Below, one piece after another: positions 21,279 to 30,704 of a stretch of 32,000 nt of DNA. Source of the stretch: Candidatus Velamenicoccus archaeovorus (GTDB lineage: Bacteria; Omnitrophota; Gorgyraeia; Velamenicoccales; Velamenicoccaceae); assembly GCF_004102945.1 (NCBI RefSeq), contig NZ_CP019384.1, forward strand, positions 420,001-452,000, in the 5' to 3' direction. The position numbers were made by a program, and so were the translations under genes. Under the pieces are notes generated by a model. It saw only the letters and a program-made list of their open reading frames with translations, ran no database searches and was not told the DNA's origin. Each line of letters begins with the position of its first letter. The stretch's first letter is position 1.

Positions 21279-21991
21279 ATCGTTCCGATGGCCGTTCGAC
21301 GGATATGTTGAGAAAGGTGAAGGTGACGCGTAAATTCCTCAAGCACGCCGAAGGGTCGTGCTTGATCGAGGTCGGCGAGACGAAGGTCATTTGTTCGGCA
21401 AGCGTCGAAGAGACAGTACCGCTTTTTTTGAAGGGTAAGAATGAAGGGTGGGTCACGGCCGAGTACGGAATGCTGCCGCGTTCCTGCGAGACGCGCGTCA
21501 ACCGCGAGAAGCAGAGATCCGGCCGCACGTTTGAGATCCAGCGGCTGGTCGGCAGGTCTCTGCGGACGGCCGTGGCCATGCGCGAACTGGGGGAGAGGAC
21601 CATCACCCTCGACTGCGACGTCATCCAGGCCGATGGCGGCACGAGGACCGCGTCCATCACGGGGAGCTTTATCGCGCTGGTCGATTGCCTCGACGTCATG
21701 AGAAAGCGCAAGATGATCCGGCGCATCCCGATCACGGATTTCGTCGCCGCGACCAGCGTCGGCATCGTCGACGGGGCCACCCTGTTGGATCTGACATACG
21801 AAGAGGATTCGAAAGCGGAAGTCGACATGAACGTCGTCATGGTCTCCAGCGGCAGCTTCATCGAGATCCAGGGCACGGCGGAACGCAAGCCGTTTTCCAA
21901 GGAACAGATGGATGTGCTCCTGGGGCTGGCCCAAAAAGGCATTACGCGGCTTATCGAGATGCAGAAAGACCTGCTGAAAGACGTGCAATAA
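21275..21991 (+). CDS. rph: Ribonuclease PH
   Basis: 238 aa with [44 protein letters not shown] and [18 protein letters not shown], which are canonical for RNase PH. Confidence 0.93.
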
Positions 21992-22825: not shown

Positions 22826-25546
22826 TTAAGGCGCGATGTTGGAGAGGAAGTCTTGAATTTTATTGAAGATGTTTTTGGTGATGGGTTGCAGTTTGTATTG
22901 CGGTTTTTGGATGTTGCCCGTGATATTGATCGCCGTCATGCCGCCTGCGGTATTGATGACATCCCCGATAGGGGATTGTCCGGGGCCTGTCGTTGGGACC
23001 TGAGTGACCGCCATCAGATCCAGCGTCCCGTCGAAGCCGATCCTTCCTTTGACCAGTAGTTCCACGTCTTGTCCCATCAGATCCAGATTTTCCGTCATCA
23101 ACCAGCCGTCTTTGATCGAGAAATCTCCCGTCGCATGGCTGAATGAGAGAGTATCGAAGCGCGGCATGAAGATGAAACTTCCAAGTCCCTTGAGCGGGTT
23201 GAATTCCCAGATATTGCCGTCCGTCACGACGATCTGCCCCTGGCCGCTGATCGATTTCGGGTCCGTCCCTGCGCCATCGGCAACGGCCTGGAGGCTGAGC
23301 TTGCCGTAAAAAGTCTTGCCTTTCAAGTCCGGGATGTCGTTTTTGAGGAGGTTCAGGTCGAGGTCTTTGATCTCGCCCGTCACTGAATAGCGGGGCCTGG
23401 GCGTGTTTAAGATCAGCCGGCCTTTGATGACGGCCGGGCCGTTGTAGGCCGTAAAGTTCAGAAAATTGATAAGGCCCTGCCCGGCTGTCTGCGTATAGTT
23501 GAGCGCGATGTCTTTGATGGTGAATCCTTTGACGTGTACGGCCTTGCTGGTGATGTTGGAGTTGATCTTCCAGGATGTCCACTCTTTGGCCGGGCCTGCG
23601 GCATTGAGCTGGATATGGCAGAGGCCGTTGAGGTCGACGGGTTTTTCAAAGACGGCCTTCTGCGGCACCCACTCTTTGAGGTCTGTGATATTGATGTCGC
23701 CGCCGGCATTCAAATGAAAGGCGGCCGTAGCCAGGTCGTACTGTCCGGAGCCTTCCAGTTGTGAATCCTTGACGGAGATTTTTAAAGAAGGGATGTCGAG
23801 AGCATTGTTTGTTTTGTTGATGTGGGCCTCCAGCATCATGTCTTGCGCTGCCGCCTTCACGACACAGGAAGATGTTTGGAAGCCCTTCCATGTGCCGTCC
23901 AGGTCAAAGGCCCGCCCCAGAAGAGAGAGGCCTTCCAGGTGCCATGCGATTCTTTCTTCCTGCGTATTGAAGCTCACGCGTCCGCCCGAAGCTTTGAGCG
24001 GACTGGCGGCGTCTAAGACGATGACGGGTTCCTGCAGAAGGATGTCTCCCTCAAAGGATGTTTTTTTATGGGCGAGGTCGGCGAGGATATGGATGGTCGC
24101 GTCAGCCTCGCCGGAGAGTTCCGTAACGGGCCCGCCATAATATTCTTTGATGACAGGCAGGAGTGTCTGGAGTCCTATTTTTCCCGAGGCCTTGAGATTG
24201 AGAGCGTTATCCTTGAGCGAGCCGCTGGCGGTGATCGTCGTTCCCAGAACTTCCGCGCTCATCTGGGTCAGGCTGATATTCTTTTCTTCAAAAGATGCCT
24301 GAAGGGATGCGATTTTTATTTGTCCGACATAAGGCAGGCCGCTGAGTGTACCGGAGGTGACGTCCAGACTGCCTTTGTATTTCAGCGGGATATTTTTGAC
24401 ATCTGTCGTGTCGGGCCGCGGGATATCGATTTGCGCATGGACAGAGGCATTGATGCCGGCTGCTTTGATGTCTCCGCTTTGGCCTCGCAGGTCTGCGACG
24501 GTAAAGTCGGAGATAATGCCGATGACAGCCTGACCGCAGGTGATGTCGGCATGCGCGCCGGTCATGCGGGCCTCTGCCTGGAGGGGCGCTGTTGAGCGCA
24601 GGGCCGCCTGGACGACATCCAGTTGTCCTTTGCCTTGCCATGCCGACCAGTTGTCCGTCGGGACGGAGAAGGAAAAGTTTGCATTGATCTCGGCGTCGCT
24701 CACGGCGATATCCTGGTATACCGCATTGATCTTTTTGGAGCGCAGCTGGATCTGGGACGAAAAGGTTTTTTGTTCCTGGAGGGTAAAACTCGCCTCGAGC
24801 GTATCAACGAACCCTTGCGTCGGCGCATAGGGCGCGCCTGGGAGGTAATCCAGGTAACGCGCCATATCGAGATCGCGCAGGACGATGCGGCCGCTCAAGT
24901 TTTTTGTGCCGTAGGCATAGTCTGCGTCTATGGAGATGTATGTTGTCGCATCGCCGCGTATGATCTCGGTTGATGCGCTAAGGATAGCTTTGTTAAATCC
25001 CAGGCGCGCTTCCGCTTGTTTAAGGCGGAGACGGGCTGTTGCCGCAGGTTCGATGGTCTCATCTGTCCAGAGGATCGCACTGTCTTTGAGATTGACCTGC
25101 CTGACGATGACGCTTGGCATGGAAGCCGTCGTGTCCGTTTTTTTCGGTTTTATCTTCTCCAGGAGATAGGCGATGGTGAGTGTGCCGTCTTTGCGGCGGC
25201 CGATGGTCAGCGTCGCCTCCCTGACGGACAAAGAGGGGATGATGATCTTTTTTTCCTTGAAGGACGGCAGGATAAGGAATCCGGCAGAGAGCTCTTTGAT
25301 CTCGGCCAGGCGCTGTTGAGGCGTGTCTTTGTCGTAAATGACGAGGTCTTTGAGCACCAGGCCTTTCAGGAGATTGAGGCGCAGGCCCCCAAGGGTCACT
25401 TTGGAAGCTGTGAAATCCGAAAGCCCCTGGACGATCTTCTGGCGCACGACTGAAGGCAAAAGGACCTTGTTGATGTAATAAAATCCCCCTGCCAAAAAGG
25501 CAATGAAGACAAGACAAAGAATAAGTATTATGGAGCGTTTTTTCAT
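22826..25546 (-). CDS. Large AsmA/TamB-like envelope protein
   Basis: 906 aa with an N-terminal anchor (IILILCLVFIAFLAGGFYYI). The body is long, repetitive and beta-rich, and the C-terminus (GTLDLMAVTQVP...) resembles AsmA-like proteins. It is the only long - strand gene in this half of the window. Confidence 0.6.
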   Translation of the reverse strand: MKKRSIILILCLVFIAFLAGGFYYINKVLLPSVVRQKIVQGLSDFTASKVTLGGLRLNLLKGLVLKDLVIYDKDTPQQRLAEIKELSAGFLILPSFKEKKIIIPSLSVREATLTIGRRKDGTLTIAYLLEKIKPKKTDTTASMPSVIVRQVNLKDSAILWTDETIEPAATARLRLKQAEARLGFNKAILSASTEIIRGDATTYISIDADYAYGTKNLSGRIVLRDLDMARYLDYLPGAPYAPTQGFVDTLEASFTLQEQKTFSSQIQLRSKKINAVYQDIAVSDAEINANFSFSVPTDNWSAWQGKGQLDVVQAALRSTAPLQAEARMTGAHADITCGQAVIGIISDFTVADLRGQSGDIKAAGINASVHAQIDIPRPDTTDVKNIPLKYKGSLDVTSGTLSGLPYVGQIKIASLQASFEEKNISLTQMSAEVLGTTITASGSLKDNALNLKASGKIGLQTLLPVIKEYYGGPVTELSGEADATIHILADLAHKKTSFEGDILLQEPVIVLDAASPLKASGGRVSFNTQEERIAWHLEGLSLLGRAFDLDGTWKGFQTSSCVVKAAAQDMMLEAHINKTNNALDIPSLKISVKDSQLEGSGQYDLATAAFHLNAGGDINITDLKEWVPQKAVFEKPVDLNGLCHIQLNAAGPAKEWTSWKINSNITSKAVHVKGFTIKDIALNYTQTAGQGLINFLNFTAYNGPAVIKGRLILNTPRPRYSVTGEIKDLDLNLLKNDIPDLKGKTFYGKLSLQAVADGAGTDPKSISGQGQIVVTDGNIWEFNPLKGLGSFIFMPRFDTLSFSHATGDFSIKDGWLMTENLDLMGQDVELLVKGRIGFDGTLDLMAVTQVPTTGPGQSPIGDVINTAGGMTAINITGNIQKPQYKLQPITKNIFNKIQDFLSNIAP

Positions 25547-25857: not shown

Positions 25858-26100
25858 ATGTTTGTATATATTTTGCAGAGCAAAAAAGATGGGACTTTTT
25901 ATGTCGGTTCTGCAAAAAACGTGGCAGAAAGATTATTGCAACATAATCGGTCTCAAAGCTTGGCCACTAAGGGAAAGAGACCTTGGATTTTAGTCGGAGC
26001 GGAAGAATATGACACGGTTTCTGTTGCGTTAAAACGAGAGAAGTTTTTTAAAACAGGCAGAGGCAAGAGGGCTATTAGGAATTTGTATTTGAAGAAGTAG
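25858..26100 (+). CDS. Small GIY-YIG nuclease-superfamily protein (UPF0213/YhbQ-like)
   Basis: 80 aa. FVYILQSKKDGTFYVGSAKNVAERLLQHN is a GIY...YVG-type motif followed by a helix ending in HN. ALKREKFFK carries the conserved Arg/Glu region. The stop is 4 nt before tRNA-Pro. Confidence 0.75.
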   Translation: MFVYILQSKKDGTFYVGSAKNVAERLLQHNRSQSLATKGKRPWILVGAEEYDTVSVALKREKFFKTGRGKRAIRNLYLKK

Positions 26101-26548: not shown

Positions 26549-27631
26549 ATGAAAAAAACGATCAAGATCATCTTAGTTGTTTTTGCCGTCATCATCCTTG
26601 TGTCGGTGGCCGGCCTTGCCTACGTCGTGGCCAATGCCCGTAGCATCATCCTGCCTAGGCTGGAAAAAAGCCTTGGGGTTTCTGTGAGCGCTTCGGCCAT
26701 CAGGTTTTCCTGGCCTCTCGCGGCGCAGATGGATGATCTCGCCATAGGCCAGACGATCAAGGTCAAAAGGGTAGACATTGTCCCGGGTTTCACAGGTTTA
26801 TTCACGGTAGGCATGGTTTTCGACAGGATCGTCTTCCACGAGCCTTACGTCAAGGTCACGCGCACAGGTAAAGACACGTTTGATCTCGGCTTGCCGCCAG
26901 CTGGCGACCGCAAGAAACCCCAGTCAAGCTTCATCGTGCGCCGGATCGTCCTAAAGAACGGGAGAATTGAGCTTGTGGATCAGAGCCTGGAGGATGGCCC
27001 TATTACCTTTTATGTCGATGATCTTAATCTCGACGCCAGGCAGGCTTCTTTGGCGCAGCCGATGCGTATCCAGTTCCACACCTCGGCCATCGTTAAGACG
27101 GCGAAAGAAGAGACAGTGGCGATGCTCCAAGGGAGCGGCTGGATAGACTGGCTCCCGAAAGATTGCGATGCTGTTTTGGTCCTCAAGGACGCTGATCTGA
27201 CGTATCTGGCGCCCTATTACCGGCAATATCTTCAGAAGGACCTGGAGTCAGGGCATTTGCAGGCGCAGGCCGCCATGAAGGCCGTCCATAACGAACTTAA
27301 GGTTGATACCCATGCGGAATTGACGGATGTTGCCTTTAAGGAAGAGGCTCCCGTGGCAGAGGGGGAGCAGCAACAGCCGGCGGATATTAAAGATTTGACG
27401 TATCTGGCTTTTGATTCTATACTTTCATCTGAAGGAAAGGCCGTCTTCGATTTTTCCATCACCACGAAACTCGATCATCCGAAGTTTGAGAATTTGAAGA
27501 TCAAGGGCTCGTTTTTAAGATCCCGCATCCAAGCCGCTGTGACCCATCCTCAGGAAACCATTGAACAATATAAAAAGATAGGAGAGCAGTTCGAGACGAT
27601 CGGGAAAGAATTCAAAAAAATGTTTAAATGA
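26549..27631 (+). CDS. DUF748/AsmA-like membrane-anchored protein
   Basis: 360 aa with an N-terminal anchor IKIILVVFAVIILVSVAGLAYVV, then an AsmA/DUF748-like beta-rich region. The ATG is only 10 nt after the tRNA-Arg CCA and has no SD. Confidence 0.55.
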   Translation: MKKTIKIILVVFAVIILVSVAGLAYVVANARSIILPRLEKSLGVSVSASAIRFSWPLAAQMDDLAIGQTIKVKRVDIVPGFTGLFTVGMVFDRIVFHEPYVKVTRTGKDTFDLGLPPAGDRKKPQSSFIVRRIVLKNGRIELVDQSLEDGPITFYVDDLNLDARQASLAQPMRIQFHTSAIVKTAKEETVAMLQGSGWIDWLPKDCDAVLVLKDADLTYLAPYYRQYLQKDLESGHLQAQAAMKAVHNELKVDTHAELTDVAFKEEAPVAEGEQQQPADIKDLTYLAFDSILSSEGKAVFDFSITTKLDHPKFENLKIKGSFLRSRIQAAVTHPQETIEQYKKIGEQFETIGKEFKKMFK

Positions 27632-27746
27632 GCAGATGATTTACTGAAGCGCCAGCGAAAGTAAATCATAGGCCAGGCGCTTCCGTATTCGGCCGTCTGC
27701 GAATTTAATCCTGAGCAAAGCGAAGGATCTAAGCGGCAAGCTTGAA

Positions 27747-27992
27747 ATGTGGTATGTTTATATTATTGAATGCAAAGAAGGGTCGTTCTATACAGGGATT
27801 ACGAATAATCTTAAGGTCAGAATAGGGCAACACAACCGTGGTCATGGCTGTCGGTTTACTAAATTCCGCATTCCCGTTAAATTGTTATATCATGAGATTT
27901 TTCCATCCAGGGAAGCAGCTTTGAAGCGAGAGGCTGAAATCAAAGGCTGGACAAGAGAACGGAAATTGGCGCTCATTGCGGAAAGGCTGTAG
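27747..27992 (+). CDS. Small GIY-YIG nuclease-superfamily protein (UPF0213/YhbQ-like)
   Basis: 81 aa. YVYIIECKEGSFYTGITNNLKVRIGQHN and REAALKREAEIKGWTRERKLALI form the classic short GIY-YIG pattern. Confidence 0.8.
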   Translation: MWYVYIIECKEGSFYTGITNNLKVRIGQHNRGHGCRFTKFRIPVKLLYHEIFPSREAALKREAEIKGWTRERKLALIAERL

Positions 27993-28063
27993 ATTTATTG
28001 CATTTTGGTAAGGCCCTTTACTTATTCTTTGCATTGTGGGAAGGCTCTTCGTTTCACTCAGAG

Positions 28064-28111
28064 CCACCATGATGCAAGGTTGAAATTCCTGAATTTGTTG
28101 CATCATGGTGG
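28064..28111 (+). other. Perfect 14-bp hairpin in the tRNA-His 5' leader, overlapping G-1 to +4 of the tRNA
   Basis: CCACCATGATGCAA (28064-28077) pairs with TTGCATCATGGTGG (28098-28111) across a 20-nt loop. Confidence 0.6.
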
Positions 28112-28181
28112 GTATAGCTCAGCTTGGTAGAGCGCTTGACTGTGGCTCAAGTTGTCGCGGGTTCGAATCCCGTTACCCACC
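28107..28181 (+). tRNA. tRNA-His (anticodon GUG) with genome-encoded G-1
   Basis: Manual cloverleaf: G-1 + GTGGGTA/TACCCAC acceptor with discriminator C opposite G-1, D arm GCTC-AGCTTGGTA-GAGC, anticodon arm CTTGA-CTGTGGC-TCAAG, T arm GCGGG-TTCGAAT-CCCGT. CCA is not encoded. Confidence 0.92.
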
Positions 28182-28183
28182 CT
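28169..28183 (+). repeat. Left direct repeat (putative attL) = 3' end of tRNA-His
   Basis: CCCGTTACCCACCCT matches CCTGTAACCCACCCT at 30654-30668 at 13 of 15 positions, and the last 9 nt are identical. Confidence 0.65.
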
Positions 28184-28303
28184 TTATTGTTTTAGGAGAA
28201 CTGAGGTTCGGTAACATAAAAAGAAAGGAGATGATGGTTCTATTTTTGTCATAAAAATTAGAATTATCGTTTCCTTTTTTTTGTTCAAAGGGGAGTGAGC
28301 TTT

Positions 28304-29677
28304 ATGAAAAAACAAATAGTTAATTATCAAGATAAGTGGGAAGAAAATAAAGTGAAGGTAGATGACCTTAATTTAGATGTTAATAATATTCGTCTTGAAA
28401 TAAAACATGAATCTGAGAAAGAAATAGCAAATGATCTTTTTATTAACGAAGATGCGATGGACATACTCGAAAATATTTATGAAAATGGCTTTTTCCCAGA
28501 TGAGTCGCCTATTGTTATTAAGGAAAATAACAAGCTTGTTGTTCTTGAAGGTAATCGAAGAGTAGTTTCCTTGAAGGCGATGGTTCATCCTGAAATCGCT
28601 CCAGAAAAATACGCTTCAAAAATTAAGAAAATGATGGAAGGGCGTTTGCCAATAACAGATATTTTAGTGCGTGTAGCAACTTCTAGGGACGAAGCAATGG
28701 AATATTTGTCTGCCAAACATACAAAGACTACAAGGAGGCCATGGAGTGCTTTAAGGCGGGCATATTTTTATTATGCACAGAAAGAGCGGGGGCAAGCAGT
28801 TACAGTCTTGATGGATAGATATAAAGGTGTAGATATACCGGCTTATATACGTATGTTCGAAATGCATAATGTTGCAAAGTCATTAAAGAATATTCCAGAA
28901 GAAATCAGAAAGAAAATAGCGAATAAGGGAGTTTTTAATATAACTACTCTTGAAAGGCTCTATTCTGATAAATATGTTCAACAAAAACTAGGCATAGATT
29001 TTGATAAAACTACGGGTGAGGTTAGCCTTCCTATTAATGCTTCGTTCGATAAAGTTTTTTCTAAGGTAGTTTCTGATATTGTTTCAGGTGTGGCCACTTC
29101 TCGTAAATGGCTTTCTCATGATGAGGATAGAAAGAAATATATTGATTCTGTTATTTCTGAGATTCTTGAGGGCAAAGAAATTGATACTAGAACAAAGAAA
29201 TCAGCTTCAGAGTTTAAAGCTATTAGCTATAAAAAGAAAAGGAAATCCTTGGTTGAGAAATCTTTTGTATGTACTCTAGATGCCCCAGGAATTGGTCGAG
29301 TTTTATGGGAGCTTCAAAATCTTGAATACAAAAGTTTTCCAAATGCCGCAGCAGATTTGTTGCGAACATTTTTGGAAAAAACTTTGAAAAAATACTTAGA
29401 GCAATTAAATGCTTTACCAAATCCGCGCAGAACAGGTGGTTATATTTATCTTGATGATGTGCTTACCAAGATGAGTAGTGATTTGCAGAAATTATCAAAA
29501 CATCAAATTGTTCAAATAATTGCAGAGATAAAGAATAATAAATGGTATTTGGAAAGCATTAACCATAATCCTGACATTTTTGCAGTAGAATATAGGGTTG
29601 AAGAAGCTTGGGATTTAATATGCCCACTGGTTAAATTTATTTTTAACGAGTGCAAAAAGAAAGTTGAGTCGAAATAG
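28304..29677 (+). CDS. ParB/Srx-like N-terminal domain protein with a large uncharacterised C-terminal region
   Basis: 457 aa from ATG 28304, with AAAGGGGA upstream; the track start is GTG 28295. The N-terminal VKVDDLNLDVNNIRLE and DILENIYENGFFPDESPIVIKENNKLVVLEGNRRVVSLKAM match the ParB-nuclease-like pattern, including the GxxRR arginine box. I recognise no motif in the remaining ~330 aa. Confidence 0.6.
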   Translation: MKKQIVNYQDKWEENKVKVDDLNLDVNNIRLEIKHESEKEIANDLFINEDAMDILENIYENGFFPDESPIVIKENNKLVVLEGNRRVVSLKAMVHPEIAPEKYASKIKKMMEGRLPITDILVRVATSRDEAMEYLSAKHTKTTRRPWSALRRAYFYYAQKERGQAVTVLMDRYKGVDIPAYIRMFEMHNVAKSLKNIPEEIRKKIANKGVFNITTLERLYSDKYVQQKLGIDFDKTTGEVSLPINASFDKVFSKVVSDIVSGVATSRKWLSHDEDRKKYIDSVISEILEGKEIDTRTKKSASEFKAISYKKKRKSLVEKSFVCTLDAPGIGRVLWELQNLEYKSFPNAAADLLRTFLEKTLKKYLEQLNALPNPRRTGGYIYLDDVLTKMSSDLQKLSKHQIVQIIAEIKNNKWYLESINHNPDIFAVEYRVEEAWDLICPLVKFIFNECKKKVESK

Positions 29678-29679
29678 GC

Positions 29680-30522
29680 ATGCCTTTTTATTCTCCATTA
29701 AGATATCCAGGTGGAAAAAATAAGCTAGCAGAGTTTATTGCTTCATTATGTGTAAATAATAAAATAAATAAGTGTTATGTTGAACCTTATGCTGGTGGTG
29801 CATCGGTCGCTTTGTATCTTTTGCTAAACGGTTATGTTGAAGAGGTGATTATAAATGATTACGATAGGGCTATCTATTCTTTTTGGTATTCTATATTAAA
29901 TTACACGGAAAGATTTTGTGAAAAAATTAAGAATACCGAAGTTAATCTTGCGAACTGGAATAAGTTTAAGAATATCCATTCTAAGAAAGAAGAGGCCAAT
30001 CTTTTTGATTTAGGATTTGCGACCTTTTTTCTTAATCGTACAAATCGCTCTGGTATTATTACCGGAGGACCCATCGGCGGAATGATGCAAGAAGGAAAAT
30101 ATAAAATTGATTGTCGTTTCAATGACGAAAACCTCATTAAAAGAATCCAGTTTATAGCAATTCATAAAAAAAATATTCGATTATATATGATGGATGCTTT
30201 GTGTCTTATTGAAAAGATGCAAAATGAAAGGAAAGTGAATAATTTATTTTTTTATTTTGATCCACCGTATTATTCAAAAGGACCATTATTGTATATGAGT
30301 CATTATGAACACGATGATCATAAAAAATTAAGTGAAGCCATTAAAAGAATTAATAAATCAAAATGGGTTGTTTCTTATGACAATACAAGAGAAATTAGAG
30401 AATTGTATGCTACTTGTGAAAAGAGAGAATATTTTTTGCTTCATACTGCATATAAAGTCAAAAAAGGTGAAGAGATTTTATTTATCTCTAAGGGTTTGCT
30501 AGTGCCAGATAAGGTAAATTAA
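29680..30522 (+). CDS. Dam-family (D12 class) N6-adenine DNA methyltransferase
   Basis: SPLRYPGGKNKL, the SAM-binding motif I (YVEPYAGGASVAL) and the catalytic motif IV (FYFDPPYY). The motif I-to-DPPY order is the alpha-class order. The start is 3 nt after the upstream stop. Confidence 0.88.
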   Translation: MPFYSPLRYPGGKNKLAEFIASLCVNNKINKCYVEPYAGGASVALYLLLNGYVEEVIINDYDRAIYSFWYSILNYTERFCEKIKNTEVNLANWNKFKNIHSKKEEANLFDLGFATFFLNRTNRSGIITGGPIGGMMQEGKYKIDCRFNDENLIKRIQFIAIHKKNIRLYMMDALCLIEKMQNERKVNNLFFYFDPPYYSKGPLLYMSHYEHDDHKKLSEAIKRINKSKWVVSYDNTREIRELYATCEKREYFLLHTAYKVKKGEEILFISKGLLVPDKVN

Positions 30523-30653
30523 AAACTTAAGGAGTTAGATTGTTCGTAAATTGGAATTTCGAAGTCGTAATGCCTAATTTTTGGATTATTCTAGCTGAAA
30601 ACTAAAAAATATACTAGTATTGTCAATAAAAGGGAAGAAGTTCTGTCTTTTAC

Positions 30654-30668
30654 CCTGTAACCCACCCT
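30654..30668 (+). repeat. Right direct repeat (putative attR), a partial copy of the tRNA-His 3' end
   Basis: CCTGTAACCCACCCT, 13/15 identical to 28169-28183. GC content returns to host level just downstream. Confidence 0.65.
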
Positions 30669-30704
30669 GAATTTTATCCTGGGAATTTCTAAAAGGATAC
30701 ATCA

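Follow-up and report, generated by a model that had tools for sequence, protein, structure and literature searches.

The stretch of DNA analysed here, called the window, comprises 32,000 nucleotides (nt) of Candidatus Velamenicoccus archaeovorus, phylum Omnitrophota (contig NZ_CP019384.1, positions 420,001 to 452,000). Within it, next to a tRNA-His gene, lie two genes, A and B, that are almost certainly a copy of PD-λ-5, a known two-gene anti-phage system, as judged from profile matches and sequence comparison. Coordinates are positions in the window, and the amino acids (aa) of protein A are counted from the ATG at 28304. The pair and the predicted parts of protein A are as follows.

28304..29677, + strand: gene A, PD-Lambda-5_A homologue of 457 aa (PADLOC PDLC03998, E 1.6e-49; BU251_01680; BLASTP to an E. 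coli PD-λ-5A-type protein)
28331..28744, + strand: predicted N-domain of A, ParB/sulfiredoxin (Srx) or ParB-CTPase fold, aa ~10–147 (Foldseek, conservation, weak Pfam matches)
28745..29263, + strand: helical middle region of A, aa ~148–320 (Foldseek, helix-turn-helix matches in divergent members, pLDDT dip at aa 300–325)
29279..29674, + strand: predicted C-terminal helical-bundle domain of A, aa 326–457 (AlphaFold2 model, conservation, sub-threshold Foldseek matches)
29680..30522, + strand: gene B, PD-Lambda-5_B, D12-class N6-adenine DNA methyltransferase of 280 aa (PADLOC PDLC04018; Pfam PF02086)

Assignment of the gene pair to PD-λ-5

The open reading frame (ORF) of A, proposed by the first-pass annotation at 28304–29677, is real. 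In the ORF list it runs on the + strand from 28295 (GTG) or 28304 (ATG) to 29677, and its 457-aa product matches, at 100% identity, BU251_01680 of Candidatus Velamenicoccus archaeovorus, named 'ParB/Sulfiredoxin domain-containing protein' in UniRef. The start codon is likely the ATG at 28304, because homologues open with MKKQI and a GGGGAG Shine-Dalgarno-like string lies 7–8 nt 5' of this ATG, overlapping the alternative GTG. Scans of Pfam and NCBIfam placed protein A in no family. Several homologues (P0014, P0018, P0057) are labelled 'Fe-S-cluster formation regulator IscX/YfhJ' in JGI records, which looks like an annotation error spread across those records.

The best PADLOC profile for protein A is PDLC03998 (PD-Lambda-5_A; E 1.6e-49), and 22 further PD-Lambda-5_A profiles match it, jointly spanning aa 9–449. 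Protein B matches PDLC04018 (PD-Lambda-5_B) over aa 2–278 with an E of 4.2e-116. Gene B directly follows A on the same strand, which is the PD-λ-5 arrangement. PHROGs also contains a match, phrog_9592, a phage family of unknown function (E 8e-41). Vassallo et al. (2022; PMC9519451) have obtained PD-λ-5 from E. coli ECOR7 by functional selection for phage resistance and have described it as 'ParB/HEPN, methyltransferase'. The E. coli system protected against nine of the ten phages tested, T-even phages most strongly (PMC9519451). The system has been validated by experiment under this name, and standard annotation profiles cover it: PADLOC names both genes. The first-pass annotation had seen in A a possible effector or sensor of a conflict or defence system, coupled to a methyltransferase, and the PD-Lambda-5 profile matches of both genes bear this out. 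Its suggestion that the system was undescribed does not hold, since the whole protein belongs to a family already described as PD-λ-5 (PMC9519451).

An E. coli copy for direct comparison was located via the DNA similarity of the methyltransferase gene. A DNA probe from the locus of a ~500-aa representative had no match in E. coli genomes, and cluster look-ups of ten ~500-aa representatives returned no E. coli names. In strain EC6622 the pair consists of WP_001072651.1 (a 501-aa hypothetical protein) and WP_000675356.1 (a 294-aa 'DNA adenine methylase'), at a P2-prophage hotspot, flanked by the genes for the replication endonuclease and the portal. It spans 2,460 bp, against 2,461 bp for the published ECOR7 coordinates, and has the same top PADLOC profiles as the window pair (E 5e-168 and 1.4e-121). 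This prophage copy served as the BLASTP reference; equating it with the ECOR7 system rests on span, context and the domain description in the paper. Against the EC6622 protein, the N-terminal part of A is 30% identical over 148 aa (E 1e-9) and the C-terminal part 28% identical over 130 aa (E 3e-7); the two methyltransferases share 45% identity over 285 aa (E 7e-86).

In the window and E. coli pairs alike, A precedes B on one strand, and the best PADLOC profiles are the same. Common to both A proteins are DxxNxR, EGNRR, KHT and a Trp in the N-domain and PNA..LLR and HNP in the C-terminal part, and both B proteins are D12-class N6-methyladenine (m6A) methyltransferases with DPPY. They differ in that A of the window is 44 aa shorter than its E. 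coli counterpart (457 against 501 aa), and in setting: the window copy sits in a tRNA-His islet of an Omnitrophota ultramicrobacterium, the E. coli copy at the P2 prophage hotspot. By analogy with the E. coli system, a defence function of the pair in Candidatus Velamenicoccus archaeovorus is likely.

The ATG of gene B (29680) lies 2 nt past the stop codon of A, which ends at 29677. Protein B matches Pfam PF02086 (E 1.6e-22) and carries PYAGGAS and DPPY motifs; its sole relative in the PDB is 7m6b_B (E 5e-14). The earlier description of the enzyme as 'Dam-like' stands as far as the adenine-specific D12 class is concerned and fails for the Dam subfamily, for which B scores 63 bits with TIGR00571 against a curated cut-off of 114.85. 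A Dam (GATC) orthologue was ruled out as the identity of B on the same score. Cloning of the E. coli system required an mrr-deleted host (PMC9519451). This need indicates that E. coli PD-λ-5 methylates DNA in vivo. The behaviour of Mrr, taken together with the mrr-deleted host, argues for a non-Dam target site of this methylation.

The functional tie of A to the downstream adenine methyltransferase, also proposed in the first-pass annotation, is upheld by linkage. In tblastn searches a D12 methyltransferase lay directly 3' of A on the same strand in 22 of 22 loci (~18 of them distinct), and the gene calls of three far-diverged members all had the same order, A then B. The identities of the two proteins to their homologues co-vary (A 60–67% with B 58–67%; A 42–46% with B 41–45%), and the pair therefore evolves as one unit. 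Hosts of the pair include Saccharibacteria, Paceibacterota, Kaiserbacteria, Bacteroidota, Zixibacteria and another Omnitrophota genome. The range of PD-λ-5 reaches far past Proteobacteria: intact pairs that co-evolve occur in Omnitrophota, in lineages of the candidate phyla radiation (Saccharibacteria, Paceibacterota and Kaiserbacteria), in Bacteroidota and in Zixibacteria. Other restriction-modification (R-M) genes or recombinases and transposases are frequent neighbours. In other phyla, pairs lie in small defence or mobile-element clusters at L005 843–6210, L007 3808–10795 and L001 4563–9566. One PD-λ-5 locus adjoins an HpaII R-M system with Vsr, one adjoins MmeI/Eco57I-type genes and a T5orf172/ResIII helicase protein, and one is bordered on one side by a serine recombinase and on the other by a Y1 transposase with a LAGLIDADG gene.

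Such surroundings bear on the proposal that the pair serves above all for addiction: as a selfish module of post-segregational killing it would stabilise the islet or prophage, with phage defence as a side effect. The unit is compact and mobile, with a tRNA gene, the P2 prophage hotspot and the vicinity of recombinases and transposases as its sites; its spread across phyla is patchy, and R-M systems in general behave as addiction modules. Addiction is, however, compatible with defence, and the E. coli system came from a selection for phage resistance (PMC9519451), so that addiction as the main role is considered improbable.

Domain architecture of protein A

An AlphaFold2 model of protein A was built on 50 homologues (mean pLDDT 85), and conservation was read from these 50 close homologues and from 101 representatives at 22–41% identity. 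The family is large, with 4,113 proteins at E ≤ 1e-3 in a representative library. By this model the N-domain is a ParB/Srx fold, as had been read from the sequence in the first pass. Its best PDB matches in Foldseek are ParB, Noc and KorB with CDP or CTPγS (probability 1.0, E 2e-4 to 1e-3), and sulfiredoxin (target-normalised TM 0.62) and SbnI (root-mean-square deviation 2.5–3.2 Å over 116 columns) superpose on its core. Family members also give weak Pfam matches to ParB_N, ddrB-ParB and GmrSD_N in this domain.

The residues earlier assigned to an arginine box and to the position of the 'NPR' box are both conserved in the homologue alignments. Within LEGNRR, encoded at 28544–28561, G83-N84-R85-R86 (28550–28561) is invariant in 101 of 101 representatives, and N84, R85 and R86 in 50 of 50 close homologues. 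D25, N28 and R30 of the 'LDVNNIR' box (28376–28393) are invariant in the same 101, as are H139 (28718–28720) and W147 (28742–28744). KHT (138–140) stands, as we take it from the order of motifs in ParB, at the site of ParB Box III (ENxxR), and on that placement all invariant residues of the N-domain would line the nucleotide pocket. A survey of ParB-CTPase folds has reported that they bind CTP, ATP or GTP, that mutation of the conserved P-motif arginine abolished binding of nucleoside triphosphate (NTP), and that NTP specificity could not be predicted from sequence or AlphaFold3 (PMC12704722).

Canonical ParB/Spo0J, Noc and KorB (for example PDB 6sdk, 7ol9, 8qa8) share with A the N-fold, a helical DNA-binding region and an arginine-rich Box II/P-motif, and they are its best structural matches, as would be expected if A were the relic of a ParB that served partition or nucleoid occlusion in an integrated plasmid or phage. 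Unlike them, A has GNRR in place of GERR, lacks a ParA partner and the ParB C-terminal dimerisation domain, and is fused to a helical bundle with conserved Glu, Arg and His. Its TM-scores against these proteins are 0.18 (query-normalised) and 0.33–0.42 (target-normalised), low because the domain arrangement differs. Neither ParA nor any other partner gene occurs in the islet or in homologous loci, and the linkage is always to a D12 methyltransferase. A partition ParB was rejected for want of a ParA partner and for its different C-terminal bundle, and the remnant reading is barely tenable.

The DUF262 proteins GmrSD and SspE, and DndB, are like A modification-related defence proteins with a ParB/Srx-type NTPase domain at the N-terminus. 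GmrSD_N matches are weak and occur in 13 of 50 and 10 of 101 family members (best E 2.3e-4; all Pfam matches are well under the gathering thresholds). Unlike these proteins, A has no HNH/DUF1524 nuclease domain, and no dnd or ssp genes accompany it. The DUF262 and DndB families carry a DGQ(Q/H)R motif; A has GNRR. Identity with DndB or GmrSD was rejected on the weak matches in a minority of members, the absence of dnd genes and the missing HNH domain. Protein A could also control expression or activity of the methyltransferase in the manner of DndB or of a C protein, and itself have no effector role. In favour of this are its helix-turn-helix-like region and the proposal that DndB, a member of the ParB superfamily, regulates a DNA-modification system (PMC10853773). 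Broad phage resistance is not explained by a methyltransferase alone (PMC9519451), no dnd genes appear nearby in the ORF list of the window, and A (457 aa, three conserved domains and, in the C-terminal one, a polar triad that is invariant) is far larger than a controller protein. A purely regulatory role is very unlikely.

A related N-module is found in a variant at the hotspot of P2-like phages (Escherichia phage vB_EcoM-12474III gp04–gp06; Yersinia phages L-413C and HQ103). It has the same EGNRR, RH-T and Trp, is 25% identical to A over aa 17–220 and likewise adjoins a DNA methyltransferase at the P2 hotspot. It differs from A in its length of 372 aa with another C-terminus, in an extra 330-aa protein and in its methyltransferase, which is a C5-cytosine (DruM-like) enzyme encoded on the other strand. 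It would seem from these sequences that the same ParB module is combined with more than one class of methyltransferase. In the vB_EcoM-12474III cassette (NC_049457.1, 3480–6516) the N-domain also matches PADLOC PDC-M38A, and the 330-aa protein has no PADLOC match at E ≤ 0.001.

The remaining ~330 aa, in which the first pass had found no recognisable motif, contain both a ParB-type helix-turn-helix-like middle region and a C-terminal signature, E336/R354/E358/[ND]417/H421/N422. Foldseek alignments of 250–285 columns extend from the N-domain into the helix-turn-helix domain of the ParB, Noc and KorB structures, and divergent members give weak Pfam matches to HTH_ParB, HTH_23, sigma-70 region 4 and HTH_20. 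R218 and R267 are conserved, and the region ends in a Lys-rich linker of lower confidence (pLDDT dip at aa 300–325). On the model, the middle region is probably a ParB-type helix-turn-helix DNA-binding module followed by this linker. RKWLSH (aa 267–272, 29102–29119), earlier put forward with reservations as an Rx4H motif, is not one: R267 is conserved, position 272 is Lys, Asp, Ser, Thr or Asn, and the Arg-His pair occurs in one of 50 homologues, the window protein itself. In the literature, the HEPN-like region is placed in the C-terminal ~130 aa.

Modelled alone with AlphaFold2, the C-terminal domain forms a confident helical bundle (pLDDT 86, pTM 0.78). Among the 101 representatives, E336 (29309–29311) is kept in 99, R354 (29363–29365) in 100, Glu or Asp at 358 in 98, Asn or Asp at 417 in 93, H421 in 100 and N422 in 91 (H421-N422, 29564–29569). 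The conservation of E336, R354 and H421 in 99–100 of 101 sequences argues for more than a structural role. The domain resembles HEPN nucleases of abortive infection (Abi) and defence (DUF4145, Gifsy-1 HepS 9oij, the C-terminal domain of AbiA 8oz7) in being a small bundle made up entirely of helices, in which Arg and His are conserved. Unlike them, it has no canonical Rx4-6H, its conserved Arg is on a different helix, and no match to them is significant. Near the top of the Foldseek results, and not significant, are Gifsy-1 HepS (E 2.2), AbiA (query-normalised TM 0.40) and, of viral origin, a 'HEPN domain-containing protein' (E 1.3, TM 0.40). Isolated weak Pfam matches are to HEPN_RES_NTD1 in one of 50 homologues (0.0015) and to HEPN_RnaseLS in two of 50 (0.024).

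The published HEPN call was made on weak HHpred matches, DUF4145 at 35.6% and HEPN_RiboL-PSP at 8% (PMC9519451). In the BLASTP alignment these two matches correspond to the helix of R354 and the loop of H421 in A. The C-terminal loop motif is L-[N/D]-x3-H-N, the position five residues before H421 being Leu or Met, and the invariant Arg lies on a different helix. In many HEPN domains R-N-x3-H sits at the same place, the loop before the last helix. A HEPN-like domain in which the canonical Arg was lost, R-N-x3-H becoming L-[N/D]-x3-H-N, would fit this pattern and is an unproven reading. The 'HEPN' label of PD-λ-5 itself rests on weak evidence, and the family is without the canonical Rx4-6H.

Mode of action

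The best explanation of the whole is a PD-λ-5-type module in which B marks self and A is a sensor-effector with a C-terminal nuclease; we give this complete scheme an even chance. Protein B, as a D12-class m6A methyltransferase, would mark the host chromosome. Protein A would be the sensor-effector, its ParB-fold N-domain and helix-turn-helix region engaging DNA as a nucleotide-dependent switch, and methylation by B would block productive engagement with self DNA. When unmodified invader DNA is engaged, or methylation is lost, two C-terminal helical domains would be brought together and act as a nuclease, most likely a metal-independent RNase that halts growth. In the 'compacted RM+Abi' description, this RNase step would correspond to the Abi half. 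The parts of the scheme differ in strength. That B protects self from A is moderately probable. That the C-terminal domain is the catalytic effector, a HEPN-like RNase, is a tentative proposal and only slightly more probable than a DNase in the ParB domain: the polar triad of the C-terminal domain and the strong activity of the E. coli system against T-even phages favour a C-terminal effector, and the reports of nuclease activity in ParB/Srx proteins and the weak HEPN evidence favour the ParB domain.

Several observations weigh against the scheme. The E. coli homologue of A is just 28–30% identical, so the phenotype is carried over by inference, and the literature covered contained no biochemistry or mechanistic study of any PD-λ-5 member, later papers merely repeating a 'dual RM/Abi' remark. 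Protein A has GNRR where canonical ParB has GERR, and NTP hydrolysis by A is putative. No R-x(4-6)-H is conserved anywhere in the family, the commonest such pair occurring in 14 of 50 or 10 of 101 sequences and lying elsewhere. Foldseek searches of the PDB and BFVD with the C-terminal model returned nothing significant (all E ≥ 1.2), DUF4145 was matched in Pfam in just three of 101 members (E ≥ 0.014), and PDB-chain profile searches with full-length, close and broad C-terminal profiles gave chance matches such as interleukins and designed binders. In addition, the counts of a promoter and terminator scan were at or below the shuffled expectation.

The weakness of the HEPN evidence also counts in favour of a plain type II-like R-M system, in which A would be a novel restriction endonuclease whose ParB/Srx domain nicks or cuts unmethylated DNA and whose C-terminal bundle only dimerises or regulates. 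DNase and NTPase activities have been reported for members of the ParB/Srx superfamily, Osa and RK2 ParB (as cited in PMC10853773 and PMC12839542), the linkage to a methyltransferase is obligate, and the strongest conservation of A is in its N-domain. Pfam, however, finds no PD-(D/E)xK, HNH, GIY-YIG or PLD domain in A, and the C-terminal residues E336, R354 and H421 are as well kept as given above. E. coli PD-λ-5 is moreover at its strongest against T-even phages, and the modified DNA of these phages is resistant to most R-M systems (PMC9519451). The restriction-endonuclease reading is doubtful on balance. A classical type II restriction endonuclease was rejected, as A has no Pfam or NCBIfam family and no restriction endonuclease family appears among the weak matches of 151 members.

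Within the sensor-effector scheme, a more specific version is speculative and rather unlikely as it stands: PD-λ-5A would be an NTP-gated ParB/helix-turn-helix clamp that loads on DNA lacking the m6A of its partner, and closure of the dimer would assemble an RNase site of HEPN type with a relocated Arg (E336/R354/H421). If true, PD-λ-5A would become the first case of an immune sensor that works through a ParB-type nucleotide switch, with 'restriction' and 'abortive infection' united in one polypeptide of 457 aa. Conservation among members at 22–41% identity offers D25, N28, R30, G83–R86, H139, W147, E336, R354 and H421 as candidates for mutation. This short list and the small 457-aa variant are starting points for the biochemistry of a broadly protective system.

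The tRNA-His islet and its surroundings

The pair occupies a low-GC islet at the 3' end of a tRNA gene, with the following features.

28108..28182, + strand: tRNA-His (GTG), its 3' end forming the left islet border (ARAGORN)
28169..28188, + strand: direct repeat, left copy (CCCGTTACCCACCCT..., the tRNA-His 3' end; repeat search)
30654..30673, + strand: direct repeat, right copy (CCTGTAACCCACCCT...; repeat search), with GC back to ~55% just after
28183..30668, no strand: low-GC islet of ~2.5 kb holding just A and B (composition profiles, ORF list)

In 200-nt windows the GC content of the islet is 26–42%, against ~55% outside. It falls from 42–46% to 28% right after tRNA-His and is back at 55% at about 30700. 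The right repeat is identical to the tRNA-His 3' end at 16 of 20 positions over the 20-mer and at 13 of 15 over the 15-mer, and the 15-mer has three matches in the window at two or fewer mismatches, against 0.04 expected from shuffles. The ORF list shows no integrase within the ~2.5-kb islet. From its composition and borders the islet looks like a minimal, horizontally acquired element at a tRNA gene. Two exact-pattern metagenome scans found neither an empty integration site nor related strains, and the insertion is accordingly deduced solely from GC content and the tRNA-end repeat. The third near-copy of the 15-mer, with two mismatches, is at 21445–21459 on the - strand; despite the low expectation it was treated as probably due to chance, since it lies inside long ORFs.

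Upstream of the islet, the region 27400–28100 is somewhat GC-poor (39–45%). Two small ORFs with a GIY-YIG domain lie on the + strand, one of 80 aa at 25858–26100 (Pfam E 5e-14), ending 4 nt before a tRNA-Pro (26105), and one of 81 aa at 27747–27992 (Pfam E 1.6e-21), ending ~115 nt before tRNA-His (28108). Between the latter and the tRNA is a perfect 14-nt inverted repeat with a 20-nt loop (28064–28077 / 28098–28111; CCACCATGATGCAA ... TTGCATCATGGTGG), the right arm of which overlaps the first four bases of tRNA-His. From its position it could be the terminator of the GIY-YIG gene or a structure in pre-tRNA processing. The ORFs flanking the tRNA cluster, one of 906 aa at 22826–25546 (- strand) and one of 360 aa at 26549–27631 (+ strand), are unrelated to the A/B pair; the 360-aa product matches DUF748 and, weakly, YhdP in Pfam.

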